Virus genome (UHGV): UHGV-0128318
Length of the DNA: 19,979 nt
Reading direction: 5' to 3' (one strand)
From: a virus
The position numbers were made by a program, and so were the translations under genes. Shown piece by piece: positions 3,310 through 19,979 of the stretch (position 1 is the stretch's first letter; every line of letters begins with the position of its first letter). The notes under the pieces are model-generated. The model was not told where the DNA came from, did no database searches, and was given only the letters and a program-made list of their open reading frames with translations.

Positions 3310-3315
3310 GGAGTA

Positions 3316-3385: not shown

Positions 3386-3446
3386 ACAGGTGTTTTTATA
3401 GTTTGCTTGAACGAGTGATCAGAAGTTGATCGTTAATCAAAGGCCA

Positions 3447-3734
3447 TTACGGATTAAGAGAGTGGAAATACCTAACTAACTTACCGGCATCATCACATTT
3501 TTCTTTATCTTCTTCCTTAACATAGCCGCGACAGAAGGCTGAATAAAATTTCGCATTTTCAGAAGCAAAAGCAGCCGTCGAAAGGAGCAGTTCTTTGCAT
3601 GATTCTTTTGATGCAGCATCGGGATTATTTTTACATGCAAGCTCCGCTGATGAGTTAATAACAGAAATGCTATCTTCCTGGGCATAAACCGCAGCAGAAA
3701 AGGCAAAACATAAAACCAAAATAAAACTCTTCAC
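3447..3734 (-). CDS. Small secreted protein, about 95 aa, with a signal peptide (KSFILVLCFAFSAAVYA|QE) and four Cys in the mature part; function unknown
   Basis: GTG start at 3734-3732 with AGGAG at 5-nt spacing (the track's longer start at 3758 lacks an RBS); classic n-h-c signal peptide with AxA site; locally AT-rich. Confidence 0.5.
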   Translation of the reverse strand: MKSFILVLCFAFSAAVYAQEDSISVINSSAELACKNNPDAASKESCKELLLSTAAFASENAKFYSAFCRGYVKEEDKEKCDDAGKLVRYFHSLNP

Positions 3735-3761
3735 TTTATCTCCTGTAACAGTTATCACAAC

Positions 3762-4157
3762 TCAATCAACTTTTTTAGCATCAGCCATACGCTTCAACCA
3801 GTAATCAACAATCGGCTGCTCATCCACAGAATGTTTACCAGGTATAACTCGCCAGCTATCTTGCGAAAATCTGCCGTACTTACGCGGGAATAGGCCTTTC
3901 TTTATCTCCCGCCATGTACTAGGAAAACCATCCACAAAAGTACCAATTAACAGGAGAGGGACAAAAATCAGAGCTACAAACCATCGTGCAAGAAAGTGTT
4001 CAACAACAACATTTTCACCGTTGTAGTAATACGCATACGCATCCAATATGCGAATTTTCCTTACCTTAAAAATAGCCTTATGCTGAGAACGACTTAACTT
4101 GATACGAATGTATCCCTTATCCAAAGGGGATTCGTATTTGTATGATTGAACAGCCAT
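3762..4157 (-). CDS. Single-pass membrane protein, about 131 aa (TM segment FVALIFVPLLLIGTFV); function unknown
   Basis: ATG at 4157-4155 with GGGG at 6-nt spacing; hydrophobic helix in the middle; AT-rich like its downstream neighbour. Confidence 0.5.
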   Translation of the reverse strand: MAVQSYKYESPLDKGYIRIKLSRSQHKAIFKVRKIRILDAYAYYYNGENVVVEHFLARWFVALIFVPLLLIGTFVDGFPSTWREIKKGLFPRKYGRFSQDSWRVIPGKHSVDEQPIVDYWLKRMADAKKVD

Positions 4158-4159
4158 TT

Positions 4160-4486
4160 TTAACCCCACTCACCATCAGCAAACAAAGCGTTATACTCTG
4201 ACAATGGTAGATGGTTGCCCTCGATGTAGAGATTCAGTTCATACTTCGTCTCCGGGTTTTCCTTGTCGGCTCGTTCCCAACGCTCAGCAGCCTCACGCGC
4301 CAATAACTCCACTGCTTTCAGATAATCCTCCGTACGGAACCAGCCAAAGATAAGGCCACGATCTGTTACAGCCCAGGCAACCTTTTTTTCTTCCTCCTGG
4401 ATAGCCTTAATGCGTCGATCGCATTCATCCCGGCAAAACTGCAGCTGACGGTAATCAAGTTTGTCCAAAAATGCAGTAGTAGACAT
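4160..4486 (-). CDS. Hypothetical cytoplasmic protein, 108 aa (MSTTAFLDKLDYRQLQFCRDECDRR...)
   Basis: ATG at 4486 preceded by GGGGAG; the track start at 4564 is an upstream extension without an RBS. Confidence 0.5.
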   Translation of the reverse strand: MSTTAFLDKLDYRQLQFCRDECDRRIKAIQEEEKKVAWAVTDRGLIFGWFRTEDYLKAVELLAREAAERWERADKENPETKYELNLYIEGNHLPLSEYNALFADGEWG

Positions 4487-4490
4487 ATTT

Positions 4491-4589
4491 TTACTCCCCG
4501 TTAACCGAAAAATCACGATAGAAACGTTTCCACATACGATAAGTCTGCGCGAGTTGTTCACCACGAAACATCGCCTTCCTGGCCTTCAT
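4491..4589 (-). CDS. Possible 32-aa micro-ORF (MKARKAMFRGEQLAQTYRMWKRFYRDFSVNGE) between repA and the next gene
   Basis: AAGGAAAA then ATG; its stop overlaps the RBS of the downstream gene. Too short to judge further. Confidence 0.25.
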   Translation of the reverse strand: MKARKAMFRGEQLAQTYRMWKRFYRDFSVNGE

Positions 4590-4674
4590 GTTTTCCTTGT
4601 GAGACTTTCGATCTATGAACCAAAACCATTGCTGGAACACACAAAGCAAGAGACACAAAGATAATATCCACTGA

Positions 4675-7600: not shown

Positions 7601-8664
7601 ACATCGTTGAATTTCGATAAGATTTCATAGCCAGTCCGCAGGCCGGTATTCCCTTTTCCTTCTGTAGCTGATTTCCGGTCATTATCCAGTGCGCAGGTGA
7701 TTTTTGCCGCCGGGTACATGTTTACCAGTTGTTCCACAACATGAACCATGTTGTTAGCGGATACAGCGACAACCACAGCGTCAAAGCGTTTATCTTTTTT
7801 CGTGGCAAGCCAGATGGATGCACCAGTAGCAAAACCTTCTGTAACAGCGATGTTTTGCGCCCCTTTCAGCTCACCGATAACAAAGCAGGCACCGACGAAA
7901 TCGCCGCTGGTTACGGCGCTGGTCTGGTATTTTCCACCTTGTTTGTCGATTCGCTGCCAACCAACAATACGACCATCGTAACGACCGTCCAGGTGAGCCA
8001 GAGGGATAGCCATATACGTGGTTGGCCCCCTGCTCCATTTTGCGCTGTCGTGACTGGTCACGCGACGCACATCACACGAATTAAAAACGTCACGAATACC
8101 TTTTTTAATCGCATATGGCCATGAGCCGTCTTCTGCAGGAGCATGTTCCCAAGCACTGTGGAATGCCAGCCATCCCAGCAAACGTTCATGGTCCATTTGG
8201 TTGTTTTTCAGGTCATTAATTCGTTTTTGTTCTTCACGGCGACGACGTGCTTCACGTTCTATTCTTGCCCGTTCTTCTTCCGGTTGTGCGACCACGGTCG
8301 CATTATTCCGTTGTTGCTCACGGCGATATTCAGAAAACAGGAAGGAGAAACCGCTCCATGAGCCAGCATCGCTGCCTTTATGGACGAAGTTAATGAACGG
8401 GTAATCAATCCCTTTGCTGTGTTCCAGTCGGGAGTAAATTTCTACGCGTCCTTTGAGGCTCTTCTCGAGAGCTTCTGGAGATGTTTTATTGTATGAAGAG
8501 TAACGCTCAACACCCCCGCGAGGGTTGAGTTGGATGTTGTCGGAACAGGCAGACCAGTTGATACCAGCCATCTGTGCCAGCTCGGTTAGTTCATCCCGTG
8601 CTGCTTCAATTAGCGAGAACGGATCGCTGCCAAAGCGATCCGCATAGAAATCGTTTAATGTCAT
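4675..8664 (-). CDS. repA: RepA-type multidomain replication protein (primase-helicase), 1329 aa, with a Walker A motif (GMGSGKST)
   Basis: Size and position (next to cB, transcribed away from cro) match N15 repA, which is about 1.3 kaa; NTP-binding motif seen. All + strand track ORFs between 5616 and 8404 are antisense artefacts of this gene. Confidence 0.9.
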   Translation of the reverse strand: MTLNDFYADRFGSDPFSLIEAARDELTELAQMAGINWSACSDNIQLNPRGGVERYSSYNKTSPEALEKSLKGRVEIYSRLEHSKGIDYPFINFVHKGSDAGSWSGFSFLFSEYRREQQRNNATVVAQPEEERARIEREARRRREEQKRINDLKNNQMDHERLLGWLAFHSAWEHAPAEDGSWPYAIKKGIRDVFNSCDVRRVTSHDSAKWSRGPTTYMAIPLAHLDGRYDGRIVGWQRIDKQGGKYQTSAVTSGDFVGACFVIGELKGAQNIAVTEGFATGASIWLATKKDKRFDAVVVAVSANNMVHVVEQLVNMYPAAKITCALDNDRKSATEGKGNTGLRTGYEILSKFNDVRCVYPTFEDDPQMECSDFNDLHKLRGLRETARQLFATANRLKTGTDLLSLTLNRLKTIKRDNRRTFAKELLRAVDIGMLTCPVPNSPSDLFNMFCIVLREMGLENIYRATVKDHIARRLNKKCRIAQAPRSFSERITDPNKRPQHITYKRFETSVMTDDVLKYVQSLQGIVIVRAGMGSGKSTGLLRPLMHSSERGISVAHRVSLIGGLWEMMTEGKGVKADILHYQDPGYQEMAPYASKLTICINSIVKNCWQPLMRQHDYFGFDEATQGLRAVLSGRAMENPVAVFNTLIDALARTEQHPIMVDADANDLLVDLAELAMKRREELGLPAWLQIHVIELPVDVRNRETGEPIRVFYTEKDRIMTEVVKAVSDGEKIMLATDSSTFAEDVTATLRMHFPGKKFLCVNQKNKPEPEVEAFTNQPKKMVKKYDGLIYSPSISSGVSIEQKHFDRHFGMFCGEVVPSDAVQMLRRDRTAKEFIIGFDKARAKRETDPQKIERAFAQALLATAGMNGELTDVVFDGDRISMGVANTDFTRMKIKAAAIEATARNDYASNMICIMHSDGYKVSPLATDYAANDIGKDLRKEARDIVWEQTLDLHLNTETPQESEREELLKKRALTLEEQAKLVRWDIENELKLPVEEGTLKFYFDGARDKVRRYETMLLDEVTARRYDREEAAINFTYAYRQAGQWQYFVVTAMTREQADDVFKTKFPGIIDHKVKATPTVEVGARGFYALKSATLRQYFIDCGINPETMTGEATQERLKFARDNLMTAERRDLLNNVLHIGGFMTPKGKPKVPEALFKNICDSLGLKTGKRRGRDGDKRPTLRFVEPESAAFMLDILAQRQKDGLTLKTRKAEKTAIEMDRDLDLNIYMDDKTRSTNEQVQNAPHSVISEALAVLPVVVPESWAMSALSGEELATMSSWSSASIAMTFASLYLTEFMDHLSSNELRRLREYITGNSPCSYEEQGAFYG
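4950..5010. other. Candidate internal replication origin element: AT-rich stretch (catatatatatt) with three GATC sites within about 50 bp, inside the 3' end of repA
   Basis: Seen in sequence; N15 ori is known to lie within the 3' part of repA. Confidence 0.3.
8049..8062. repeat. Family-2 palindrome cgtgactggtcacg inside the repA 5' coding region
   Basis: Perfect 6-bp arms around a 2-bp centre; same core as 3366-3385 and 14369-14382. Confidence 0.6.
8287..8302. repeat. SopB-type centromere-like palindrome tgcgacc-ac-ggtcgca (family 1), inside repA coding sequence
   Basis: 7-bp perfect arms; core GACCACGGTC resembles the F sopC binding site TGGGACCACGGTCCCA; four more copies in the window. 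Confidence 0.5.
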
Positions 8665-8718
8665 TTTTTAGCCATTCCATGCGAATTATGTTTTTTCGGG
8701 TTGAAAAAATCCGCAGGA

Positions 8719-8774
8719 GCAGCCACAATAAACGCATCTTGAATTGACGGAATCCGTCGCGTTGTTGTGGCTGC
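8719..8774. promoter_or_regulatory. Long imperfect inverted repeat (gcagccacaataaacgc ... gcgttgttgtggctgc) enclosing a small hairpin (gacgg-aat-ccgtc), in the repA 5' leader
   Basis: About 14 of 17 arm positions complementary; lies between the repA ATG (8664) and the cB stop (8910). Confidence 0.4.
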
Positions 8775-8787
8775 TTCCTGAAAAGGA

Positions 8788-8815
8788 CCCGAGTTTGCCG
8801 ACTCGGGTTTTTTTT
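8788..8815 (+). terminator. Strong intrinsic terminator on the + strand (cccgagt-ttgccg-actcggg then T8); in the minus orientation the same hairpin is followed by only ccuuuu
   Basis: 7-bp stem and 8 T read directly; there is no + strand gene upstream, so it may end an antisense or leader transcript, or act weakly and bidirectionally after cB. Confidence 0.5.
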
Positions 8816-8909
8816 CGTCTTTTTTCTGCTGCTGTAACCTGAGTCAACCCACAGAACATATGCCCTGCATTAAACCAGATTTACAGTAAACAATAAACCC
8901 CATATTAAG

Positions 8910-9506
8910 TCATCTACCCTCAACCATGAATGATTTGATCGTTCCGACTATTTGGTGAACAAATTCAAGATCGCTTTTCCTGAAGATGGCGCGTTGTGAG
9001 TTTGTTCCATCCAGATAGTAATTTTCATCATCAAAACGGGCCAGGCGCTGGATAGTGATATTTCCTGCAGTATCACGAACCAGAACATCCTCGCCGGGGA
9101 CCAGTTCCAGCGCAGAATCGACCAGGAGAAAATCGCCTGGCTGATAGTTTCCCTGCGTAAGATTGCTGATAGTTAACGCATACACAGTATTGCGCTGGCT
9201 GATGAATGGCAGGAATCGCTCAGTATTTGGAACCTGTCCCGGCTTCCACTCTTCATCCGGCCCACTTTCAGTTGTGCCAATAACAGGAATGCGATCAGGG
9301 TCATATTCTGTCCCATATAGCACCCAATGCACTGGCTTGCGTAAGCACTTAGCCAGGGCAATACCTATCTCCAGTGACGGCATTACGTCGCCACGTTCTA
9401 AGTTTTGGACGCCTGCTATAGAGATATCGACAGCCTCAGCAACTTCTCGCAACGTCAGCTTCATCTCTAAACGGCGTGCTTTCAGTCGTTCGCCTCGTGT
9501 TTTCAT
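8910..9506 (-). CDS. cB: Prophage repressor CB (lambda CI-like: N-terminal HTH, C-terminal S24/LexA-like domain), 198 aa
   Basis: HTH region LTLREVAEAVDISIAGVQNLERG at the N-terminus and a C-terminal domain of repressor size; divergent from cro across an operator region. Confidence 0.85.
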   Translation of the reverse strand: MKTRGERLKARRLEMKLTLREVAEAVDISIAGVQNLERGDVMPSLEIGIALAKCLRKPVHWVLYGTEYDPDRIPVIGTTESGPDEEWKPGQVPNTERFLPFISQRNTVYALTISNLTQGNYQPGDFLLVDSALELVPGEDVLVRDTAGNITIQRLARFDDENYYLDGTNSQRAIFRKSDLEFVHQIVGTIKSFMVEGR

Positions 9507-9528
9507 AGCTTAATCATAAATGATCTTC

Positions 9529-9544
9529 TTATAGCTGGCTATAA
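9529..9544. promoter_or_regulatory. Operator palindrome ttatagc-tg-gctataa (candidate CB/Cro operator 1)
   Basis: 16-bp inverted repeat in the cB-cro intergenic region; second copy 26 bp away. Confidence 0.6.
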
Positions 9545-9554
9545 AATTTATTTA

Positions 9555-9570
9555 TTATAGCTGGCTTTAA
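9555..9570. promoter_or_regulatory. Operator palindrome ttatagctggctttaa (candidate operator 2, one mismatch to operator 1)
   Basis: Near-identical direct copy of the 16-mer at 9529-9544. Confidence 0.6.
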
Positions 9571-9597
9571 TTGTTGTTTATTGTTTATAATAACAAC

Positions 9598-9819
9598 ATG
9601 AAACCAGAAGAACTTATTCGCCATTTTGGCAGTGTAGAAAAAGCAGCGGCAGGGGTAGGTGTAACACCCGGAGCTGTTTACCAATGGTTAACCGCTGGAG
9701 AGATTCCTTCATTGCGGCAAAGCGATATTGAAGTTCGTACTGCTTATAAGCTGAAGAGTGACTTTACAACTCGGCGGGTAAAGCAGTCGATTAAGGAGAG
9801 TCGTAAGCGTGGAGCTTGA
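9598..9819 (+). CDS. cro: Cro-like small HTH regulator, 73 aa (MKPEELIRHFGSVEKAAAGVGVTPGAVYQWL...)
   Basis: Divergent from cB; HTH motif; ATG at 9598 preferred over the track's TTG at 9571. A TATAAT hexamer sits at 9586-9591 only 6 nt upstream, so the mRNA may be leaderless. Confidence 0.7.
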   Translation: MKPEELIRHFGSVEKAAAGVGVTPGAVYQWLTAGEIPSLRQSDIEVRTAYKLKSDFTTRRVKQSIKESRKRGA

Positions 9820-10519
9820 GTATATACGCAGCTGCGTCTCTACGGCATTGGCTGATGTTCATTATCTCCAGCGTGGCATTCTGGAGGTCCAGCTTGAGCA
9901 GATGCGTCTCGGTAGATCAGGACGGTTTAACAATAAACCAGTCCGGTCAATCAGTGTGGGGGATGATAACTCATACGAAGTGTCCGTTTCTGCTGAGCCG
10001 GTTAGATTCCATCAGGGGAAAACATTTAAACAATCATCAATGTTGCTCACTGATATTGATTTTCAGAGCGCCAGCTGGCGCAGGGCTATTGGTCAGTTGA
10101 ATAACGAGGAATCAGCCTGGCTTTATTATTGCTACGGATGCAAGCCTGATTACAACAATGATGTGATTGTTTGTCAGTGGTTATGGCTTGATTTTCTGGT
10201 TGCTCATTCGGGGGGCGGCTTTAAAAAAATGAAGGCCTCCACGAAAAAAGCTATGCGAAAATTGATTTATTACGCGGCACAACAGGTTAAATCAGAACTT
10301 ACGTGTGCTGAGGCAGTTGATGAGAGAGAACAGGACAGGCATCTGAGTTTTCTACTGAATATATCTATTGATAGCTGGAGACAAGATTATAAAGAACGCT
10401 GGCTTTTAATTAAGTCGCGATGTCTGAGCTTAAATCGAACTGCATTATTAAATGCGGCGGAGAAGCGCAGTGAAATCATCAAACGCCATCGGGCAGGAAG
10501 TGCCATTCTGCCTTTGTAA
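9809..10519 (+). CDS. Putative late-gene antiterminator (Q-like by position), 236 aa with CxxC (CYGC)
   Basis: Immediately downstream of and overlapping cro, as Q is in N15/lambdoid phages; the family assignment is positional only. Confidence 0.45.
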   Translation: MELEYIRSCVSTALADVHYLQRGILEVQLEQMRLGRSGRFNNKPVRSISVGDDNSYEVSVSAEPVRFHQGKTFKQSSMLLTDIDFQSASWRRAIGQLNNEESAWLYYCYGCKPDYNNDVIVCQWLWLDFLVAHSGGGFKKMKASTKKAMRKLIYYAAQQVKSELTCAEAVDEREQDRHLSFLLNISIDSWRQDYKERWLLIKSRCLSLNRTALLNAAEKRSEIIKRHRAGSAILPL

Positions 10520-10772
10520 ACAAGTTATGTTCAGGAAACCGTCGAAGCCAGAATTAAGGTATTCGGGGGTAAGAAATGAATATGTTATCTGGTGTCCAAC
10601 TTGTGGTTATAGGACACGACCAGATAGTAATAAGCAGTCTGTAATTGCCGATTGGTATTTATCAAATCAGCCAGGTAATAAGCATATAGAAAATCTTTGG
10701 ATTAAGCGTTACTTGGAAATCAGAGAGGGTGCGACCGTGGTCGCACAAGAAAATGAAAATAACGCCATTTAA
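10470..10772 (+). CDS. Zinc-ribbon small protein, possibly Lar-family (restriction alleviation-like): PFCLC ... WCPTCGY ... SVIADWY
   Basis: GTG at 10470 with GGAG at 7-nt spacing, overlapping the Q-like 3' end by 50 nt; an alternative ATG at 10527 loses the first Cys pair. Confidence 0.35.
   Translation: MKSSNAIGQEVPFCLCKQVMFRKPSKPELRYSGVRNEYVIWCPTCGYRTRPDSNKQSVIADWYLSNQPGNKHIENLWIKRYLEIREGATVVAQENENNAI
10729..10746. repeat. SopB-type centromere-like palindrome gtgcgacc-gt-ggtcgcac (family 1), within coding sequence
   Basis: 8-bp perfect arms. Confidence 0.5.
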
Positions 10773-10782
10773 GCAGGGGCCG

Positions 10783-10956
10783 ATGACGCATGATGAAGCA
10801 GAGCGTCTTTCAGATACTTATCGGCGGCGTGGTAAGAAAGTTCTGGTTGTTCGTTCTGATTTTTTAGGTGATGGATATTGTGTTTATGTTCATTTACCTG
10901 AATCAGAAAGAACGCCAAAACCATCCAGAACATATCAACAGAAAATTTGGGTATAG
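10783..10956 (+). CDS. Hypothetical small protein, about 57 aa (MTHDEAERLSDTYRRRGKKVLVVRSDFLGDGYCVYVHLPE...)
   Basis: ATG preceded by AGGGG; the track ORF 10729..10956 extends upstream across the palindrome and the preceding gene. Confidence 0.3.
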   Translation: MTHDEAERLSDTYRRRGKKVLVVRSDFLGDGYCVYVHLPESERTPKPSRTYQQKIWV

Positions 10957-10979
10957 ATAAACGTTGAGGAGAATTATTC

Positions 10980-11579
10980 GTGACTAATCAGATTATTTAC
11001 GACAGGAAACGGTCTGATGTAATGATTGACCTTGAAACAATGGGTACTAACACATGTGCTCCAATTGTTTCTATCGGGGCAGTGTTTTTTTCTCCAGAAA
11101 GTGAGGAATTAGGTCCTACTTTTTATGTGCCAGTGAATCTCAGAAGCTCGATGTTGAATGGTGGTATCGCCGATGGTGATACCATTTTATGGTGGTTGAA
11201 ACAGAGCAAGGAAGCCAGAGCCGCTATTTGTACTAATGATGCCCTTGATATTAATGATGCACTTTTTGAATTATCACACTTTATTACTTGCCATGCATGT
11301 AATTTAAAAAAGTTGAAAGTATGGGGAAATGGAGCAACGTTCGATAATGTAATTTTACGCGGTGCTTATGAGCGCGTTGGCTTAGCCTGTCCGTGGGAAT
11401 ATTTTAATGATCAGGATGTTCGAACAATCGTTAATCTTGGTCAGTTTATTGGTTTTAATCCTAAAAAAGATATGCCATTTGATGGCGAACGACACAATGC
11501 CTTGGCTGATGCTATTCATCAGGCTAAATATGTATCCGCAATTTTCTCCCGTCTTGTAAAAGGGCAAGGAGAATCGTAA
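10980..11579 (+). CDS. DEDDh-type 3'-5' exonuclease (DnaQ/RNase T-like fold), 199 aa
   Basis: Motifs MIDLETMG (Exo I, D-x-E) and HNALADA (Exo III, H-x4-D); GTG start with GAGGAG at 8 nt. Confidence 0.7.
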   Translation: MTNQIIYDRKRSDVMIDLETMGTNTCAPIVSIGAVFFSPESEELGPTFYVPVNLRSSMLNGGIADGDTILWWLKQSKEARAAICTNDALDINDALFELSHFITCHACNLKKLKVWGNGATFDNVILRGAYERVGLACPWEYFNDQDVRTIVNLGQFIGFNPKKDMPFDGERHNALADAIHQAKYVSAIFSRLVKGQGES

Positions 11580-11998
11580 TGGCAAAGGCTTTTACACCAG
11601 AACAGAGGGAAGAACTGAATAAACAAATTGTGGAACTCGTGCGCCTGAATGGACGAGGAACGGTTAGGCAACTTGCGGATGAAACTGGTATTAGCCGGTG
11701 TGCTGTTAGTCGTTTATCAAGAGAGCTTGCTGCCAGTGGTGATTTGTATATCTCTGGCTCCGGGATATTTCTGTCTGCACAAGCACGCAAGGACTGGCAA
11801 AACGCCCGTAAAAAACTATCAAGAGTAAAGCCGAAGAAATCGGTAGTGGTTGATCCAGACCTTATCTGGTCATTACCTGACGGAGAAATACGTCGTTACG
11901 ACAGGCGCTTGAACATGATTTGTCACGATTGCCGGAAAAGTGAAGTTATGCAGCGTGTGCTGGCTTTTTATCAGGGAAATTTACAGGAGGTGGCGTAG
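11579..11998 (+). CDS. Putative HTH DNA-binding protein, 139 aa
   Basis: Helix-turn-helix-like segment TVRQLADETGISRCAVSRLSREL; start overlaps the upstream stop. Confidence 0.5.
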   Translation: MAKAFTPEQREELNKQIVELVRLNGRGTVRQLADETGISRCAVSRLSRELAASGDLYISGSGIFLSAQARKDWQNARKKLSRVKPKKSVVVDPDLIWSLPDGEIRRYDRRLNMICHDCRKSEVMQRVLAFYQGNLQEVA

Positions 11999-12288
11999 TG
12001 AATATCGACACCACGATAACGATCGATACGGCCCTAAATATCGGTCTGGCACTTCTCGGTTGGTTTTACATCATGTTCAGTGCGGGGAAGTGGGCGGCCT
12101 CTGTTTTTCTAAAGCAGTGGGGAAAGCACCGCAAACAGGAAAGACGCCAGAAAGTGTTAGAGGCGTTCTATGACGCATTTGAACTTAGCCGCATTGAGCC
12201 AGGCACAACAGCCAAGATAGCGACAAAAGGCGACCTGATGATAGTGATGTTCCGACAGGAGAGAGCAGAGAAAGGGGAATCAGCATGA
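11998..12288 (+). CDS. Small membrane protein, 96 aa (hydrophobic segment ALNIGLALLGWFYIMF)
   Basis: GTG start after GGAGGTGG; one predicted TM segment. Confidence 0.4.
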   Translation: MNIDTTITIDTALNIGLALLGWFYIMFSAGKWAASVFLKQWGKHRKQERRQKVLEAFYDAFELSRIEPGTTAKIATKGDLMIVMFRQERAEKGESA

Positions 12289-12974
12289 AATTTTCCAAAT
12301 TTTCTGAGTTGGTGAATCGTATTTTGTCCAACAACCACAGCCATCGTCGCGATATGGATGTAACAATCGTTATTCATTCGCCTGGCAGCATTGGTTCAAC
12401 ACCCTCAGTTGAGGTTCAGTCAATTCACGCTGGTTTTGATTGGGATTCCGGGAAAGTGCTGATTTTCCCAGCACAGCCACTGACCACGCTAACACCAGAA
12501 CAGATTACTGATATTACTGATAGTGTGCGCAAAGGTCAGTCCTGGCACGCATATCAGGAATACAAGAAGCATAAAGAGCAGTTGGAAAAATTATCGATTG
12601 AACTTGATACCGCAAAACAGCGCATTGCAGAGCTGGAGAGCAATCGCGCGGCGCTGGCGGCGGAGCCTGTAGCGTGGCGATATCGCTACGTGAAAAAAGG
12701 CGTTACGGACTCTCAGGGGGAGCCGTGGGTTGGTGACTGGAAATATGTACCGACAACAGAGGATTGCAACGACAGGCCGAGCTATGAGATTCAGGCCTTA
12801 TTCACTGCCCCGCCAGTCCCGGTGACATCAGAAGGACTGGTTAAAGCCGTGCGTTTCTATGAACAAGTTAAGCGTGAAAATCCGCCAGTCGAAACCGGAG
12901 CATGGAAAGACGCGATTGACTGGGTGCTCAAAGAGGCCTGCCAGGTTGTAAACACTGGCATCAAAGGAGAATGA
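12285..12974 (+). CDS. Hypothetical protein, 229 aa, with a central coiled-coil (KEQLEKLSIELDTAKQRIAELESNRAALAA)
   Basis: ORF with overlapping start/stop junctions in the operon; no recognisable domain. Confidence 0.5.
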   Translation: MKFSKFSELVNRILSNNHSHRRDMDVTIVIHSPGSIGSTPSVEVQSIHAGFDWDSGKVLIFPAQPLTTLTPEQITDITDSVRKGQSWHAYQEYKKHKEQLEKLSIELDTAKQRIAELESNRAALAAEPVAWRYRYVKKGVTDSQGEPWVGDWKYVPTTEDCNDRPSYEIQALFTAPPVPVTSEGLVKAVRFYEQVKRENPPVETGAWKDAIDWVLKEACQVVNTGIKGE

Positions 12975-12975
12975 T

Positions 12976-13185
12976 ATGGCTATTGCCGCAAGTTACACCA
13001 TGCATCTCTATTGTGACTGCCGTCAGTGCACGGAAGGTGTATATCCAGTGCCAGACTTCGGTGAGTATATAGGTACGTCATGGGCTGGCTGTGCAAAAGA
13101 GGCGCGCAAGGATGGCTGGCGAATAAGCAAAGACAAAACGCGTGCTTTTGCGCCAGGGCATAAAGTTTTGAGGATTAACAAATGA
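12976..13185 (+). CDS. Hypothetical small Cys-containing protein, 69 aa
   Basis: Tightly packed within the operon; contains CDCRQC. Confidence 0.4.
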   Translation: MAIAASYTMHLYCDCRQCTEGVYPVPDFGEYIGTSWAGCAKEARKDGWRISKDKTRAFAPGHKVLRINK

Positions 13186-13577
13186 CCACTATTACCAAAG
13201 AGCGACTGCTGACAATCAAGCAGTGGCGCGAAACATACGGACCGGGTAGCAACGTTGTACTGCCAGCAGAAGAAGCGGAAGAACTGGCACGAATTGCGCT
13301 GGCATCGCTGGAAGCAGATCCAGTTAAACGAGTTAACTCAGATCAGATGCGCCGAGTCTGCTTAGAAGCTAATCGCCATTTAGATAAATATGACGCGATG
13401 GCGAAAGAGGTAAATAAGTTGCTTGGACGCATCGCCCCGCCAGCGCCGGTAGTGCCGGAAGAAATCAGTACGACCCACACAATGCTGCCCGCCATGAGTG
13501 ATCAGTTGATGGCGTTCGGTTATGTGAAGGGGTGGAATGCCTGCCGTGCCGCTATGCTTCAGGGAAAAGGAGAGTGA
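13182..13577 (+). CDS. Hypothetical protein, 131 aa (MTTITKERLL...)
   Basis: ATGA overlap with the upstream gene; shares its first five residues with the next gene. Confidence 0.5.
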   Translation: MTTITKERLLTIKQWRETYGPGSNVVLPAEEAEELARIALASLEADPVKRVNSDQMRRVCLEANRHLDKYDAMAKEVNKLLGRIAPPAPVVPEEISTTHTMLPAMSDQLMAFGYVKGWNACRAAMLQGKGE

Positions 13578-13578
13578 T

Positions 13579-14031
13579 ATGACCACTATAACCGATAAGA
13601 AACAGTATCCAGGCGAGCAATATCTTAATGAGCTGATCACCAACATAGAGTTTGCTGCAAGGGCACCAGTTGAAGTCGTGAGAGCGATGGCAGCAGAGCT
13701 ACAGAAGCGGCGCGAAGCTGATAGTGCAGAACCTGTAAGCCAAACTTACAAGTTAACTTTTGAGCAATGGCTGGAACAGCAGCACGGCAAAATTGATGTT
13801 GATTGCGGCTGTGTGAGCACTGAAATGCTTCTGCACTGGATGCGTGTGGCGTATGAGGCTGGCAACTCTCCGGTAACTCCGGATGGTCATGTTCAGTTTT
13901 CTGTTTCACTTCCTGCAGCGTTTGGTGGAGATAAATATTTTATTGATGGTGTATTTCAACCTTTGAGATATGAGCGTGACTGTGAAAGGGCGGTTGTGGC
14001 CGCTGGCGGTGTAGTTAATTGGGTTAAGTAA
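13579..14031 (+). CDS. Hypothetical protein, 150 aa (MTTITDKKQY...)
   Basis: ATG one nt after the upstream stop, RBS GGAGAG; the track start at 13537 is an extension. Confidence 0.5.
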   Translation: MTTITDKKQYPGEQYLNELITNIEFAARAPVEVVRAMAAELQKRREADSAEPVSQTYKLTFEQWLEQQHGKIDVDCGCVSTEMLLHWMRVAYEAGNSPVTPDGHVQFSVSLPAAFGGDKYFIDGVFQPLRYERDCERAVVAAGGVVNWVK

Positions 14032-14046
14032 TTTTCAGGAGGATTT

Positions 14047-14373
14047 ATGGCGCTGACACCGGCAGAACGGCAAAGGAGACGCAGGGAACGGTTGAAGAAG
14101 GAAGGCACATCAAGACGGGACTGGATTCTAGAACCTGACGAGTTACGTATGTTGGGGGAAATTTGTGTATTGCGTAGACCAGGGCGAGTTCCATATTCGG
14201 AGAACGAAGTCATTGGTTTGCTGATCAGGAAAAACTATAAGGAGCTGCAGAAGCAGCTATCTACTACTTGCCCGCGATGTGGTCAAAAAATGCCTGTTTC
14301 AGAATGCATTTTTGATGGCGAAGGGTCATGCCACCTTACAACCACGAGGCTGAAACTTGCGCTCAAAGCGTGA
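14047..14373 (+). CDS. Small basic DNA-binding-like protein with a C-terminal Cys cluster (TPAERQRRRRERLKKEG ... CPRCG ... C), 108 aa
   Basis: ORF with RBS AGGAGG; N-terminal Arg-rich stretch resembles a ribbon-helix-helix or basic DNA-binding region. Confidence 0.45.
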   Translation: MALTPAERQRRRRERLKKEGTSRRDWILEPDELRMLGEICVLRRPGRVPYSENEVIGLLIRKNYKELQKQLSTTCPRCGQKMPVSECIFDGEGSCHLTTTRLKLALKA

Positions 14374-14382
14374 CTGGTCACG
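14369..14382. repeat. Family-2 palindrome cgtgactggtcacg spanning the stop codon of the upstream gene and immediately before the next RBS
   Basis: Perfect 6-bp arms around a 2-bp centre. Confidence 0.6.
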
Positions 14383-14391
14383 GAGGGATAA

Positions 14392-14634
14392 ATGGATAAA
14401 AAGGCATTGCTTTTTGAAATGATACGAAAACGGAGCGAAAAGAGCTTTTCTGATGGTGGTGATGGGTTTGTTTTCGCTTCGATGCTTGCTTTTGATGTTG
14501 GGTTAAATAGCAGAATTGTTAAAAGGATGCTTGATTCTGCTGTCCGTACTGGACTTCTTGAGAAAGTTGATCGTGGCATAGGGAGAGAGCATAAGTATCG
14601 GGCCACACAGCAGTTTACGCAGTTAATTCATTGA
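14392..14634 (+). CDS. Hypothetical small protein, 80 aa
   Basis: ATG with GGAGGG RBS. Confidence 0.45.
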   Translation: MDKKALLFEMIRKRSEKSFSDGGDGFVFASMLAFDVGLNSRIVKRMLDSAVRTGLLEKVDRGIGREHKYRATQQFTQLIH

Positions 14635-14662
14635 AAATTGACCGTAAAGTTTGAGTTTTACC

Positions 14663-14678
14663 CTGTAATTTTATACAG
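14663..14678. promoter_or_regulatory. LexA (SOS) box CTGT-aattttat-ACAG overlapping a candidate promoter (TTGAGT-17-TACAGT)
   Basis: Matches the CTGT-N8-ACAG consensus with an AT-rich spacer; the only such site found in the window. Confidence 0.55.
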
Positions 14679-14716
14679 TACAAACAACCTTTTTTAGTTA
14701 AATGGTATGAGATTTA

Positions 14717-14920
14717 ATGTCTGAAGCAGCCGTATCAACTCTTGAACAACTCGATTCAAATTTAAGAGATATTGACGCCATTCTGGATCTGGTTAGCGTC
14801 ACCCTGGCTTCTCCAGAAGCCAGCCTACATATTGGTGAGGTTTCACGACTCATCAACATGTCGCGAGAGATTGCCCAGCATTGTCAGAAAACTATCGCTG
14901 TTGAGCGTTCACATCATTGA
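14717..14920 (+). CDS. Small SOS-controlled protein, 67 aa; candidate LexA-regulated antirepressor (AntC/Tum-like by regulation and position)
   Basis: First ORF downstream of the LexA box; N15 is known to have a LexA-controlled small antirepressor. No sequence-level identification was possible. Confidence 0.4.
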   Translation: MSEAAVSTLEQLDSNLRDIDAILDLVSVTLASPEASLHIGEVSRLINMSREIAQHCQKTIAVERSHH

Positions 14921-14962
14921 TGCACACCCCGCCCTTCTGGACGGGGTAGTAAAAGAGTCTAA

Positions 14963-15250
14963 TTAATAAACAGCGCGAATATCGATGGCTGCGCCGCAGG
15001 CATGAGCATATTTAGCCAAAGTTTTCATACTTGCCCCTAAAGGATTGCTTTCCAGGCGGCTGATGGCTGACGGTCGTAACCCCATTCGTTCAGCCAGAGC
15101 TGATTTCGTTAAACCTGCTCTTTCCCTCATTTCGTATAACATTTCGACCATCTCCAGCTCTTTGTCGGCCTCTTCATATCCTTTGACGGCTTCTGGAGTG
15201 TTGAGGAGTTTTTCTTTTACTTCGTTAAACGGGATGCCTTTCGCTTTCAT
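14963..15250 (-). CDS. HTH (XRE-family) antitoxin, HigA-like, 95 aa
   Basis: HTH segment LTKSALAERMGLRPSAISRLES; translationally coupled (ATGA) to the upstream toxin gene. Confidence 0.75.
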   Translation of the reverse strand: MKAKGIPFNEVKEKLLNTPEAVKGYEEADKELEMVEMLYEMRERAGLTKSALAERMGLRPSAISRLESNPLGASMKTLAKYAHACGAAIDIRAVY

Positions 15251-15561
15251 CAGTTCATCTCCTTCAGGCGAGTTCTGGCGATTTCGATAGCCTTCACCGG
15301 TGTTTTCTGTGTCTTTTTTACAAATGCATGCAATAGATAAATTTCGTTACCAGTCGCGTAGGCGTACAGCGTTCTTGCGATGTTTTTATCCCCTACTCGT
15401 AGTTCAAAAAGCCCTCCACCTATTACACGGCTATGGGGCATCTTCAGTTTGTTGCCTTCTTTCTCCAGTCGCTCAATTAATCTGGCCATGCGACCTCGCA
15501 AATCATCTGGTAGTTCAAGCAGTTCATCCAGTGCTGCAGGGTGGGTTATCACGTTAAACAT
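15250..15561 (-). CDS. Gp49-like (RelE/HigB-fold) toxin, about 103 aa (MFNVITHPAALDEL...LLHAFVKKTQKTP...)
   Basis: Hallmark LLHAFVKKTQKTP motif of the Gp49-like family; ATG at 15561 with GGAGG at about 8 nt; the track's longer start lacks an RBS. Confidence 0.8.
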   Translation of the reverse strand: MFNVITHPAALDELLELPDDLRGRMARLIERLEKEGNKLKMPHSRVIGGGLFELRVGDKNIARTLYAYATGNEIYLLHAFVKKTQKTPVKAIEIARTRLKEMN

Positions 15562-15726
15562 ATTATAGCCTCCACATCCATAAAATACACCAAAACAAGA
15601 AAACAACGCAAATTAAAAATTTCATTAAAAAGCGAAAAATAACACTGGATGTGTTCGTTTGGCAGAGTTACAGTTCGTGTCATTGAGGGGCAATAACCCA
15701 CTAACTATATGAATTTGGAGGATATT

Positions 15727-15948
15727 ATGAATTATCAAGGTAACGAAAAAATGCGCGGCGACGTTGCGGAGATAGCTAACGAACTGTATGAGTTGTGGCA
15801 GAAGGTTGAACGTTTCGAAAAGGAATATGGTTTCAACAGTACCAACCTAACAGACCGACTGGCTGGTCGCTTAGTTGGGACTATGGGGCCAAAACTGGCT
15901 GAGTTGAACAGCTTTATGGCTGATGTTGATTTCCAGTTTCAAGATTGA
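15727..15948 (+). CDS. Hypothetical small protein, 73 aa
   Basis: ATG at 15727 with GGAGG at 8 nt. Confidence 0.45.
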   Translation: MNYQGNEKMRGDVAEIANELYELWQKVERFEKEYGFNSTNLTDRLAGRLVGTMGPKLAELNSFMADVDFQFQD

Positions 15949-15961
15949 TTAGAGAGGCGTT

Positions 15962-16189
15962 ATGAATATTAATGAAATTCGTGGAAATATGACTGAAGCG
16001 GCCCTGAGTGTGGAATGTGTTATGCGTGGATACCCACACATTTCCCTGAAAGAGTTAAGCGAAGCCTGTTTTTTGAGTCAAGCTGCCGTTGAATTTATCA
16101 TCGAACAGATGATCTGTTTTGGGGTTGCAAAGCGTAGCGGATCTGGTCGATATTCTTTGACCGATGAATATAAGCAGGCAACTTTCTAA
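15962..16189 (+). CDS. Hypothetical small protein, 75 aa, possibly winged-helix
   Basis: ORF with RBS GAGAGG. Confidence 0.45.
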   Translation: MNINEIRGNMTEAALSVECVMRGYPHISLKELSEACFLSQAAVEFIIEQMICFGVAKRSGSGRYSLTDEYKQATF

Positions 16190-16193
16190 AAGC

Positions 16194-16213
16194 TGTGCGA
16201 CCACGGTCGCACA
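16194..16213. repeat. SopB-type centromere-like palindrome tgtgcgacc-ac-ggtcgcaca (family 1), intergenic
   Basis: 9-bp perfect arms, 5 nt after the stop of the preceding gene. Confidence 0.5.
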
Positions 16214-16298
16214 GCACAAAAACGAAAAAGCTTGGCAAAATGACGGTTTTTAGTTATTGTTTTGTTAAGTTGGGTTTTTTGTACCCAACAGCCAACAA

Positions 16299-16321
16299 GC
16301 CGCCTTTATGGCGGTTTTTTT
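16299..16321 (+). terminator. Intrinsic terminator (gccgcc-tttat-ggcgg then T7)
   Basis: GC stem with a U-tract; preceded by a second hairpin gttgggt-ttttttgt-acccaac. Confidence 0.7.
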
Positions 16322-16338
16322 GTGCCTGAAAAGTGGGC

Positions 16339-16364
16339 GCAGGACAAGTTGCAGCTTGTCCTGC
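16339..16364. promoter_or_regulatory. Perfect 10-bp inverted repeat gcaggacaag-ttgcag-cttgtcctgc upstream of the methyltransferase gene
   Basis: Seen directly; no U-tract follows, so more likely an operator or RNA structure than a terminator. Confidence 0.4.
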
Positions 16365-16408
16365 GGTCAACCCATGCCAGAGCTATAGGCTGAACCTAAA
16401 GCCCACCC

Positions 16409-16422
16409 GCGATGCGCATCGC
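16409..16422. promoter_or_regulatory. Perfect 14-bp palindrome gcgatgcgcatcgc overlapping the first in-frame ATG of the methyltransferase ORF
   Basis: Seen directly. Confidence 0.4.
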
Positions 16423-17533
16423 CGGGTTAGCTTACCCAGGCAAAAAAATAATAGCTATGTTCAAAACCACTAATATTCATGGCGCACAACTCGTTTGCGC
16501 AGATTCTCTGCAATTTATCAAAACCATCCCTGATAACTCGGTCAATTTGATTGCAACAGACCCACCATACTTCGGCGTAAAGGCTAACGCATGGGATAAC
16601 CAGTGGGATAGCGATGCTGACTTTTTGGGGTGGATTGACGAATTTTTGGCAGAATTTTGGCGGATATTGGCCCCTAATGGCAGCCTGTATATGTTTACCG
16701 GCTCTCGCCTTGCGTCAAAAATTGAATTATTAACTCGCGACCGTTTCAATGTTCTGAACCATATCATTTGGGCTAAACCCAGTGGTATGTGGCGCGGTTG
16801 TCATAAAGAAAGTTTAAGGGCTTATTTTCCTGCTACTGAAAGAATATTATTTGCAGAGCATTACGGCGCGTCAGGTTATGCTAAAGGTCAGTCAGGTTAT
16901 GCTTCAAAATGTGCAGATTTAAGAAAAAATATTTTTTCTCCACTAATTGATGCTTTTTCGCTGGCTCGCCGTCAGTTAGATATATCAGCCGCAGACATTA
17001 ATTCAGCGACAGGAAAGCAGATGTGTTCACACTGGTTTTCTTATTCGCAGTGGCGGCTTCCATCATTAATTGATTTTAATAAACTATGCGAATTATTTCG
17101 CAGGAAGGCAGATTCACTCGGTGTCCCGTGTCCATATCCTTTTAATGTTGATTATTCAGAACATGAAAAGCGTTATAGCGATCTGAAATTGCATTATGAG
17201 GAAGTAAAGAAGCAGTATGATGATTTGAAGGCTCAGTATGAAAATTTACGCCGTCCATTTCATGTTACTGCTGATGTACCTTATACCGATGTATGGGAGT
17301 TTCCTCCTGTGCAATATTATCCTGGCAAGCACCCATGTGAAAAACCTGCAGCGATGATGGAACATATTATAAAGAGTAGTTCACGCCCCGGAGATATCGT
17401 TGCCGATTTCTTTATGGGATCAGGCTCAACTATTAAAGCTGCGCTGAAGTTAGGACGTCAGGCAATAGGTATTGAGATTGAGGGCGAACGTTATCTTCAG
17501 ACAGTTGATGAAGTGAAAAAGTTATTTGAGTAA
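16412..17533 (+). CDS. Orphan DNA methyltransferase of the N6-adenine/N4-cytosine amino-MTase family (beta-class: DPPY motif N-terminal, FxGxG motif C-terminal)
   Basis: Motifs IATDPPYF and DFFMGSGST; no adjacent restriction endonuclease gene. The true start may be the ATG at 16457 (MFKTTNIHG...). Confidence 0.85.
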   Translation: MRIAGLAYPGKKIIAMFKTTNIHGAQLVCADSLQFIKTIPDNSVNLIATDPPYFGVKANAWDNQWDSDADFLGWIDEFLAEFWRILAPNGSLYMFTGSRLASKIELLTRDRFNVLNHIIWAKPSGMWRGCHKESLRAYFPATERILFAEHYGASGYAKGQSGYASKCADLRKNIFSPLIDAFSLARRQLDISAADINSATGKQMCSHWFSYSQWRLPSLIDFNKLCELFRRKADSLGVPCPYPFNVDYSEHEKRYSDLKLHYEEVKKQYDDLKAQYENLRRPFHVTADVPYTDVWEFPPVQYYPGKHPCEKPAAMMEHIIKSSSRPGDIVADFFMGSGSTIKAALKLGRQAIGIEIEGERYLQTVDEVKKLFE

Positions 17534-17628
17534 CTGGAGAATATATTCCCCTGCCGTTTTTGGTAGGGGTTATTTTCGCCATATAGTTTCCAAGCCGAAA
17601 CCTCAGCAACTATTGCGAGGTAAGAGAT

Positions 17629-17901
17629 ATGAAGATGGATGAACGATACAGCAGTGCATCTTATGGTAGCGCCGGTCTTGCTGCGTTCTTTGCCAGCCTG
17701 TCATTGCAGGATTGGGGCTTCATTATCGGTGTCGCGTTCAGCATTATCCTCGGTGTGCTTACATACCGGCTCAATAAACGCGAGCAGATGAAGCGCACGA
17801 AGATATTGCAGGAGATATTGGATAAAACTAATACCAATAATCTTTCTGCTACAGCGATGGTTATTGGAGAGCTGGGGAAGAGAGCACCGAAGGAAATATG
17901 A
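17629..17901 (+). CDS. Class II holin (pinholin-like, two TM segments), 90 aa
   Basis: Two hydrophobic helices followed by a charged C-terminus; immediately upstream of and overlapping the endolysin start. Confidence 0.7.
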
Positions 17902-18398
17902 TGCAGTCATCATTACGCAAAGCTGTTACAGCTGCTATTGGTGGCGGGGCTATTGCCATAGCGTCTATGCTCATCACTGGCCCAAGTGGTAACGATGGTC
18001 TGGAAGGTGTCAGTTACATACCATACAAAGATATTGTTGGCGTATGGACTGTATGTTACGGACACACTGGAAAAGACATCATGCTAGGTAAAACGTATAC
18101 CGAAGCAGAATGCAAAGCTCTCCTGAATAAAGACCTTGCCACTGTCGCCAGACAAATTAACCCGTACATCAAAGTCGATATACCGGAAACAACGCGCGGC
18201 GCTCTTTACTCGTTCGTTTACAACGTGGGCGCTGGTAATTTCAGAACATCGACGCTTCTTCGCAAAATAAACCAGGGCGATATCAAAGGCGCATGTGATC
18301 AGCTACGTCGCTGGATATCTGCTGGCGGTAAGCAATGGAAAGGCCTGATGACTCGTCGTGAGATTGAGCGTGAAGTCTGTTTGTGGGGTCAACAATGA
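17898..18398 (+). CDS. SAR endolysin (phage lysozyme, T4-lysozyme/GH24-like, with N-terminal signal-anchor-release domain)
   Basis: Gly/Ala-rich N-terminal TM ([20 protein letters not shown]) and catalytic region [14 protein letters not shown]; ATGA overlap with the holin. Confidence 0.85.
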
Positions 18399-18862
18399 GC
18401 AGAGTAACCGCAATTATCTCCGCACTGGTTATCTGCATCATCGTCTGCCTGTCGTGGGCTGTTAATCATTACCGTGATAACGCCATCGCCTACAAAGAAC
18501 AGCGTGATAAAAAAGTCAGTGAGCTGAAGCAGGCGACCGCCACCATCGCTGACATGCAGCAGCGTCAGCGTGATGTTGCTGCGCTCGATGCAAAATACAC
18601 GAAGGAGTTGGCTGATGCGAAAGCTGAAAATGATGCTCTTCGGCGCAAGCTTGATAATGGTGGTCGGGTGCTCGTCAAAGGAAAATGCTCTGTGCCATCC
18701 TCAGCCGAAACCTCCAGCGCCTCCGGCATGGGCAATGATGCCACCGTCGAACTCTCTCCAGTTGCTGGACGAAACGTTCTCGGTATCCGGGACGGAATCA
18801 TCAGAGACCAGACAGCACTGAGAACGCTTCAGGAATACATCAAGACGCAATGCCCGAATTAA
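18395..18862 (+). CDS. Rz-like i-spanin (N-terminal TM, coiled-coil periplasmic domain)
   Basis: ATG overlaps the endolysin stop (ATGA); TM segment [14 protein letters not shown]; contains the embedded Rz1 frame. Confidence 0.75.
18615..18821 (+). CDS. Rz1-like o-spanin lipoprotein embedded in the +1 frame of Rz (lipobox ...IMVVGC, Pro-rich mature part)
   Basis: ATG at 18615 with GAAGGAG at 7 nt; signal peptide with lipobox Cys; [10 protein letters not shown] typical of Rz1. Confidence 0.7.
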
Positions 18863-18903
18863 TCCCTCTGTATCAAAAACGAACTCAATTTGTTGGATAG
18901 TGA

Positions 18904-19215
18904 ATGAAAATTTATATTGCCGGGCCAATGACTGGATATGAGAACTTTAATCGTGACGCCTTTAATAAAGAGGCAGATCGTTTGTCACGACATGGTCACT
19001 CTGTCTTGAATCCAGCCACTTTGCCTAATGGTCTGACACAACGTGAATACATGGATATTTGCTTTGCAATGCTTCGTTGTGCTGATGCTATTTTGATGCT
19101 TCCTGGCTGGAAAGCGTCTGCTGGAGCAACTGCTGAGTATCATTACGCATACAAGATGGAGATGCCGGTATTCACTACGCTGAATTACCCGCCAGCTTGT
19201 TCCTCTGTAGCATAA
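18904..19215 (+). CDS. DUF4406-like protein (nucleoside 2-deoxyribosyltransferase-like fold), 103 aa
   Basis: MKIYIAGPMTG ... NPA ... CDAILMLPGWKASAGA pattern recalled for this family. Confidence 0.55.
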   Translation: MKIYIAGPMTGYENFNRDAFNKEADRLSRHGHSVLNPATLPNGLTQREYMDICFAMLRCADAILMLPGWKASAGATAEYHYAYKMEMPVFTTLNYPPACSSVA

Positions 19216-19233
19216 AAATCTCTTTGTTTCTCG

Positions 19234-19253
19234 TGTGCGACCGTGGTCGCACA
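19234..19253. repeat. SopB-type centromere-like palindrome tgtgcgacc-gt-ggtcgcaca (family 1)
   Basis: 9-bp perfect arms. Confidence 0.5.
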
Positions 19254-19453
19254 TTAAATACCGCGCTGCATCGTCGCCGTATTTCCGCATTAACCATGAC
19301 CGTAGCCCGACGGGGAACTCCTCTGCGCGAGTGTGCGGAAATAATCAAAAACGATGCACACCGGGTTTTTACCGCGCTAATGATTCGCGGGTTTGTCCCT
19401 CATGCTCGCCAGTCCTGTGCGAGGGTGGAAGAAACAGGGCATGTATTCAGGAG

Positions 19454-19473
19454 CGTGCGACCGTGGTCGCACG
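19454..19473. repeat. SopB-type centromere-like palindrome cgtgcgacc-gt-ggtcgcacg (family 1)
   Basis: 9-bp perfect arms; 200 bp downstream of the previous copy. Confidence 0.5.
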
Positions 19474-19495
19474 GTATCTTTGTCAGGAGGTTTTG

Positions 19496-19810
19496 ATGAA
19501 AGAGTTGCAAAAAATTAATTCAATAATGGAAAGATTAAGTGCTCTTGAGCGTAAGCTGGACGATTGTGGAAAGCTGTGTGTTGAAAAGCAAAATGAGCTT
19601 TACCGGGAATTTTTTACAATCGTAAGTGAGCTGATGCCAATTGTTAATAACTGCCTGATGACATCCAGATTTTTTAATGTCGATGCTACTACATCCAGAA
19701 AATTTTCTGTGAAAATTCAAGAAAGAGTTTCTGGTAGTGTGACAAGAGAGATGGCTGAACAGTTGGTGGCAATGAGCAATAAAACAAAAAGAAAAAAGCA
19801 TTGCTTGTAA
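19496..19810 (+). CDS. AT-rich moron-like gene, 104 aa, unknown function (N-terminal coiled-coil, basic C-terminus)
   Basis: ATG with AGGAGG at 6 nt; by eye about 35% GC against a roughly 50% GC background; located between the lysis cassette and cos. Confidence 0.5.
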   Translation: MKELQKINSIMERLSALERKLDDCGKLCVEKQNELYREFFTIVSELMPIVNNCLMTSRFFNVDATTSRKFSVKIQERVSGSVTREMAEQLVAMSNKTKRKKHCL

Positions 19811-19843
19811 CAGCAAATCAGCTTTCAGGGCGCGTTGACTTTC

Positions 19844-19979
19844 AGGTGTTGTGATATGCAGATGATAATTATTATCATTTGCGGGTCCTTTCCAGTGATC
19901 CGACAGGTTACGGGGCGTCAGGCGCGCGGGTTTTCGCTATTTATGAAAATTTTCCGGTTTAAGGCGTTTCCGTTCTTCT
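19844..19979 (+). other. Lambda-like cos region: cosQ-like segment, cosN-equivalent 12-mer at 19913-19924 (gggcgtcaggcg), and the start of cosB; the window ends inside cosB
   Basis: Near-identity to the phage lambda genome ends as I recall them: ...gatgataattattatcatttgcgggtcctttcc.gtgatccgacaggttacg upstream and cgcgggttttcgctatttatgaaaattttccggtttaaggcgtttccgttcttct downstream; the 12-mer differs from lambda GGGCGGCGACCT at about 5 positions. Confidence 0.8.

Follow-up and report, generated by a model that had tools for sequence, protein, structure and literature searches.

A rare, recurrent natural cosN allele at a predicted lambda-type cos site of an N15-like phage-plasmid

The cosN site of lambda (NC_001416) is functionally asymmetric: a G2C change lowers the yield ~10-fold, while the symmetric C11G change has no effect (Feiss et al., 2015, PMC4669245). 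Mutations at bp 7–12 have minimal effects on lambda TerL because the enzyme is anchored via Nu1 at R3, and with lambda TerL the yield is the same whether the cosN is that of lambda or that of N15 (PMC4669245). Several natural variants have been described: relative to lambda, N15 and phiD326 have changes at bp 9 and 12, and Gifsy-1 has changes at bp 8, 9, and 11. Neither cosQ nor the CG dinucleotides that flank cosN vary in natural variants (PMC4669245). According to PMC9303873, Vahanian et al. (2017, Virology 509:140) found conservation of the first 4 bp and of two bp on either flank. The allele of mEp213 and LLS is given as GGGCGGCGCGCT in PMC12315714, where that of mEp213 is credited to Vahanian et al. 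(2017), and satellite alleles have been listed as GGGCGGCAGACG for PICI-B and PICI-C and GGGCGACGACCT for PICI-G (Table S1, PMC9026076). Chromosomes with a 2-nt mismatch between lambda and N15 ends are viable, at a ~4-fold lower yield, and mismatched ends can cyclize, giving progeny of both alleles (PMC4669245).

Two other described systems are close to the locus reported here. N15 (NC_001901; cohesive end GGGCGGCGTCCG) resembles our genome in its protelomerase, its RepA, and its plasmid prophage with an internal cos, while lambda is an integrating phage. N15 also carries, like our genome, a natural cosN variant with G12, and it is the precedent for cleavage of a variant cosN by lambda TerL. 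The cosB of N15 consists of a single R3-N15 element (GAGGTTGTTGTT, bp 48–59) without an IHF site, and its TerS gene begins at bp 89. The EcCICFT073-type PICIs (Fillol-Salom 2018, 2019; PMC10111431) have cosQ and cosN conserved with lambda, but most of them differ in cosB, encode a Nu1-family or Rpp-type protein of their own, and lack TerL.

The locus lies at the end of a 19,979-nucleotide stretch of virus genome UHGV-0128318, hereafter called the window. Positions 1–19847 are 97.9% identical to phage PhiR46_1, and the window is 96.8% identical to Ravinvirus YDC107_1. Encoded in the window are a protelomerase (26–1729, TelK/ResT domains), an N15 RepA-like protein of 1329 aa (4678–8664, minus strand, Toprim/ori-binding domains), a CB-like HTH/S24 repressor, a DNA methylase, a lysozyme, and Rz. 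A C4 antisense RNA locus at 3122–3322 on the minus strand (Rfam: C4 82 bits, isrK 68 bits, a1/b1 C4 targets 49 bits) corresponds to the P1/N15-type antisense-RNA immunity locus, which controls the antirepressor. The protelomerase, the RepA-type primase-helicase, and the N15-like immunity region that mark Ravinvirus are thus all found here, and the window belongs to a linear, N15-like (Ravinvirus) telomere phage-plasmid.

Two small overlapping ORFs are present at 14963–15606 on the minus strand; their equivalents in relatives (L214, 8552–9150) are annotated as HTH and Gp49/HigB-like proteins, a probable toxin-antitoxin pair. The 373-aa methylase of the window occurs in 1,909 blocks of the assembly collection, and the PhiR46-like phage-plasmid lineage therefore appears to be common. 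Among the methylase matches listed (L214–L223), 10/10 lie in PhiR46-like Ravinvirus contigs, of which seven belong to ENA metagenome assemblies.

The lysis-to-cos module (17908–19979, plus strand), comprising lysozyme, Rz, DUF4406, a 104-aa ORF, and cos, matches a chromosomal lambdoid prophage of CP088374.1, referred to below as L132, at 99.8% identity, with 4 mismatches in 2,072 bases, indicating that this module is a mosaic piece common to ordinary lambdoid prophages. The mosaic joint is at 17908, where the N15-like (Ravinvirus) left 17.9 kb (1–17907) meets the lambdoid-prophage-like right part. The 104-aa ORF (19496–19810, plus strand), which has no Pfam match, is located directly upstream of cos, both here and in many lambdoid prophages. 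Between this ORF and cosQ, at 19847/19848, there is an insertion slot whose content varies among relatives. PhiR46_1 has ~1.4 kb extra there (L006, 2407–3790) with two ORFs (286 and 149 aa), the 104-aa ORF being fused into the longer 286-aa ORF, and YDC107_1 (L002) has an insert of a different size, so that its match to the window is split in two around the slot. The slot is empty in the window, in an E. fergusonii plasmid (CP055603), and in lambdoid prophages.

The last 132 nt of the window (19848–19979, plus strand) match many lambda-like phage records (92.5% identity, E = 5e-46) and could be anchored on NC_001416 as a lambda-homologous cos segment with cosQ, cosN, spacer, and R3 in the order and at the distances found in lambda; an Rfam scan of this region gave no match. 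The cosQ heptamer GGGTCCT is located at 19883–19889 (plus strand), that is, at -30 to -24 from the predicted top-strand nick, which is the lambda distance; cosQ is the packaging-termination element, and its identity here is taken from Table S1 of PMC9026076. Directly 5' of cosQ there is an imperfect palindrome with a 12-nt inverted repeat (GCAGATGATAAT / ATTATCATTTGC, 19858–19882); a similar sequence is present at the same site in lambda and its lambda-type relatives, and absent from the left flank of PICIs. The cosN core, a 12-mer between two CG dinucleotides, both of which are kept, occupies 19911–19926 (plus strand). It is followed by the cosN-to-R3 spacer (19925–19961, plus strand, lambda bp 13–49), identical to lambda in both sequence and length, the spacing between cosN and R3 being critical (PMC9026076). 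R3, the first binding site for Nu1 (TerS) in cosB, is complete and identical to lambda (19962–19977, plus strand, lambda bp 50–65), including the functionally defined bp 56, 58, and 59 (coordinates and contacts of R3 as given in PMC9026076). The window ends at lambda bp 67, inside cosB, 3' of R3 and 5' of I1, R2, and R1, and packaging would run rightwards, to Nu1 and A past the window end. An initial annotation had proposed a lambda-type cos with a divergent 12-mer, a retained Nu1-binding element, and a window ending inside cosB, and the anchored comparison agrees with it on all three, the flanks matching lambda at 34/36 positions on the left (-36 to -1) and at 55/55 on the right (+13 to +67). 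We therefore regard 19848–19979 as a genuine lambda-type cos site as far as its sequence elements tell, and it almost certainly would function as one.

The divergence from lambda is concentrated in the 12 bp of the predicted 5' cohesive end. The left end would read GGGCGTCAGGCG (19913–19924, plus strand, nick positions placed by homology) and the right end would be its complement, 5'-CGCCTGACGCCC-3'. Compared with lambda (GGGCGGCGACCT), the window 12-mer differs at bp 6, 8, 9, 10, and 12, whereas bp 1–5, 7, and 11 are identical; compared with N15, it differs at bp 6, 8, 9, and 10. The two-fold symmetry of cosN is 8/16 bp in the window vs 10/16 in lambda, the symmetric pairs G3:C10 and G6:C7 having been lost and the pair C4:G9 gained. 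In spite of these changes, every element reported to be important is kept (the CG flanks, bp 1–5 including G2, cosQ, R3, and the spacing), and the sole change outside the tolerant bp 7–12 is G6T, at the centre of the site.

The closest relatives carry yet another allele, GGGCGGAAGGCG, which is found in PhiR46_1, YDC107_1, and many lambdoid prophages together with the same flanks and terminase genes as the window. It has G6 and A7 where the window has T6 and C7, the two alleles differing at these two positions, and, with 51 IMG/VR contigs, no other non-lambda allele is as frequent in this context. While GGGCGGAAGGCG is mostly found in phages, the window allele is mostly found in PICIs.

A cos site of the N15 type was also considered for this phage-plasmid, and was rejected, because bp 48–59 of the window are lambda sequence (TAAGGCGTTTCC) and only the cosQ-cosN part is N15-like. 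In agreement, R3 of the window is lambda-type (AGGCGTTTCCGTTCTT) rather than N15-type (GAGGTTGTTGTT), and the relatives of the window encode lambda Nu1 and not an N15 gp1-type TerS.

The terminase genes were expected by the initial annotation to follow directly, and relatives that continue past this point bear this out by proxy. In L132, the cos region is identical to that of the window and is followed by I1, R2, R1, Nu1 from bp 190, and a 641-aa gpA. Contig L225, from a human-gut metagenome, matches 18646–19979 at 99.9% identity and continues with I1-R2-R1 and Nu1, which again starts at bp 190 (with MEVNKKQLADIFGASIRTIQNWQEQGMPVLRGGGKGNEVLYDSAAVI). In the closest Ravinvirus relatives, including PhiR46_1 and YDC107_1, cos is followed by Nu1, A, W, and the portal gene. 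By this homology, Nu1 and A almost certainly follow the cos site of the window too.

The window 12-mer is a rare but recurrent natural cosN allele. With conserved flanks, GGGCGTCAGGCG was found in 15 IMG/VR contigs, and an allele-specific 52-nt query detected it in 69/5,426 complete E. coli genomes, all matches being chromosomal; it is also present in two metagenome contigs and in L132 (CP088374). These counts include many occurrences in prophages or satellites of uncertain viability that may be clonally related, and the IMG/VR contigs are not independent samples. The identity of the 12-mer in many independent assemblies nonetheless shows that it is due neither to chance nor to artefact. When IMG/VR was scanned with conserved flanks and all 12 cosN positions free, the first 121 sites comprised 116 copies of the lambda allele, 4 of the window allele, and 1 of GGGCGACGACCT, all beginning with GGGCG. 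A second scan, with conserved flanks and bp 1–5 fixed in the search pattern, covered the alleles not ending in T and returned GGAAGGCG 51 times and GTCAGGCG, the window allele, 15 times, together with the singletons GGCAGGCG, GTCAGACG, GGCAGACG, GGCTGACG, and GGCGACCG; these non-T-ending alleles form a network joined by single-base steps. Across our data and the literature the variable positions of cosN are 6–10 and 12, with 11 varying also in Gifsy-1 (PMC4669245). At bp 6, the IMG/VR sequences surveyed have T6 in 16 cases and A6 in 1, and it is this natural occurrence, and nothing besides, that speaks for the tolerance of a change at bp 6. None of the INPHARED phage genomes had the window allele by allele-specific BLAST, and PLSDB plasmids and complete RefSeq E. 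coli genomes contained no 100% match to the window cos, their best matches carrying GGAAGGCG. A literature search for the window 12-mer, its complement, and GGGCGGAAGGCG, to which the allele survey of Vahanian et al. (2017) was out of reach, returned unrelated matches only.

On the basis of these comparisons, we consider it quite probable that the site is a functional cos of a Ravinvirus phage-plasmid with ordinary lambda-type packaging, and that the variant is a natural cosN allele. Nu1 dimers would bind R3, and also R2 and R1 past the window, while IHF would bend the DNA at I1. So positioned, gpA (TerL) would nick the top strand at 19912/19913 (-1/1) and the bottom strand at 19924/19925 (12/13), producing a virion chromosome with 12-nt 5' overhangs of GGGCGTCAGGCG and its complement, and cosQ would serve termination. 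The terminase would be an ordinary lambda-type enzyme, and the change would lie only in which other genomes' ends can anneal. Because the two ends derive from opposite strands of a single duplex, a cosN mutation that is tolerated keeps the genome's own ends complementary, and alleles can for this reason drift in single-base steps; they may also move by recombination across the conserved cos flanks.

Predicted DNA nearest-neighbour duplex energies are -18.7 kcal/mol for the window ends with themselves, about -9.2 kcal/mol for window with lambda ends, and -15.2 kcal/mol for lambda with N15 ends, the pairing whose mismatch lowers the yield ~4-fold, the window-by-lambda duplex thus having about half the predicted stability of the self-duplex. 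From sequence we infer the nick positions, the function of the window copy, and weaker annealing to lambda ends, and chromosomes with one lambda and one window-allele end would be expected to cyclize more poorly. It is thus plausible, as had been suggested at the outset, that cohesive-end compatibility with lambda is altered, to the point that window and lambda ends may be incompatible.

The window allele is found mostly in EcCICFT073-type PICIs, many of which carry the exact 12-mer. A PICI-type left flank accompanies 11/15 IMG/VR copies of the window allele but 4/51 copies of GGAAGGCG, and the three E. coli genome matches inspected were all (3/3) EcCICFT073-type PICIs. These elements encode int, alpA, a D5-type primase, a gpE-family capsid protein, a gpD-family decoration protein, and cos, often with a 180-aa Nu1-family protein. 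The experimentally mobilised EcCICFT073 itself was checked and has the lambda allele instead. Unlike the PICIs, the window has lambda R3 and is part of a complete phage, so that its cos is not of the Rpp-dependent PICI kind; in the PICIs sharing the 12-mer, the right flank diverges from bp 35 onwards.

Some PICIs have mosaic flanks, a PICI-type left flank being joined to a lambda-type right flank in L142, L144, and L147. In L147 (8040–8280), and also in L142 and L144, a complete lambda-type cosB (R3-I1-R2-R1) accompanies the window allele, and no Nu1, TerS, or Rpp gene follows; these elements are presumably packaged directly by the Nu1 and gpA of a helper. The sister PICIs of the L147 family differ in cosB and encode a 180-aa Nu1-family protein of their own. 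In L154 (NZ_AP022222.1, 3535400–3546112), a PICI is located inside gene E of a lambdoid prophage, and similar cases are L127, L128, and L129; this helper-embedded arrangement has already been published (PMC10111431). The genes of the L154 PICI are those for an integrase, HTH, TIR-domain, Icd-like, DUF4222, D5-primase, SSB, gpE-like, gpD-like, and AlpA proteins, followed by cos, a 180-aa Nu1-family protein, and an Abi gene. The cos of this PICI has the window allele, and that of the host prophage has the lambda allele. Taken together, the distribution of alleles and flanks suggests an exchange of cosN alleles between satellites and phages by way of the conserved flanks.

This distribution would also fit a more far-reaching explanation, which we consider unlikely. 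The cosN alleles would be cohesive-end compatibility groups, and the window allele, characteristic of EcCICFT073-type and helper-embedded PICIs, would have originated in these satellites and been captured by the phage-plasmid through recombination in the cos flanks or through end-mismatch conversion after mixed packaging. Divergence from resident lambda-allele prophages would have been selected as a compatibility barrier between satellites, helpers, and competitors; if this were true, it would prevent the formation of dead-end hybrid chromosomes or keep the genomes of satellites, helpers, and competing phages from joining at their ends. The prevalence of the PICI-type left flank (11/15 vs 4/51) and the 3/3 inspected matches, the mosaic flank combinations, and the window-allele PICI that sits inside a lambda-allele prophage are in its favour, as are the cyclization of mismatched ends into progeny of both alleles (PMC4669245) and the halved stability predicted for the window-by-lambda duplex. 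However, these data, in which the IMG/VR contigs are non-independent samples, do not reveal the direction of transfer, and the immediate flanks of the window are lambda-type rather than PICI-type. There is also no evidence that encounters between the ends of different genomes are frequent enough for selection to act on, and neutral drift together with recombination accounts for the pattern just as well.

That the window cos is a decayed, non-functional site in a defective element, its 12-mer changes being inactivating, is quite unlikely. The absence of the allele from INPHARED isolates and its many occurrences in prophages and islands would agree with decay, but decay would scatter mutations, whereas dozens of sequences with differing flanks share the identical five changes. 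Moreover, cosQ, the CG flanks, bp 1–5, the spacer, and R3 are all intact, L132 and L146 encode full-length Nu1 and gpA next to the allele, and the other genes of the window are intact and 97.9% identical to PhiR46_1, a deposited phage with a recorded propagation host. Decay was rejected on the recurrence of the identical allele and the intact functional elements.

Ordinary lambda-type packaging with a natural cosN allele is likewise what the terminase sequences point to. Eighty-three full-length gpA sequences adjoining typed cos sites were compared. Those beside GGAAGGCG (n = 37) are 98.9–99.8% identical to lambda gpA, and the two beside the window allele, GTCAGGCG, are 98.9% (L132) and 99.4% (L146) identical. 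No gpA residue among the 83 is diagnostic of GGAAGGCG (n = 37) or of the window allele (n = 2); S21A is the sole difference common to both window-allele gpAs, and A21 also occurs in 12% of lambda-allele phages. Among the matches listed, PhiR46-like Ravinvirus contigs with the same methylase carry GGAAGGCG in 9/10 cases and the lambda allele in 1/10, while the window carries GTCAGGCG, so that three cosN alleles exist in one closely related phage lineage.

The altered nicking specificity suggested by the initial annotation, taken here as that of a terminase co-evolved with its variant cosN, is accordingly very improbable and was rejected: although 5/12 positions differ from lambda and the shifts in symmetric pairs (G3:C10 and G6:C7 lost, C4:G9 gained) could in principle fit a changed recognition, gpA beside the variants is 98.9–99.8% lambda-identical without any allele-specific substitution, close relatives with near-identical packaging genes carry three alleles, and lambda TerL cuts N15 cosN equally well, with right-half mutations (bp 7–12) tolerated (PMC4669245). 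The window allele is an ordinary polymorphism that brings no new packaging specificity.

Natural variation of cosN was already known, and this allele is absent from INPHARED phages and from the literature searched; the present case adds to the known polymorphism a well-sampled natural allele with five changes, including one at bp 6, and its practical value is modest. Annotation of cos sites and genome termini in lambda-like prophages and PICIs should rely on cosQ, the CG flanks, and R3 instead of the canonical GGGCGGCGACCT. In cosmid or packaging tools, a putative use of such alleles would be as orthogonal sticky ends that the standard lambda terminase could cut. For the biology of these phages, the allele lends support to a model in which lambda TerL recognizes only bp 1–5 and the CG on either side of cosN, its placement being set by Nu1 at R3, and it indicates that one phage lineage can swap cohesive-end alleles freely.
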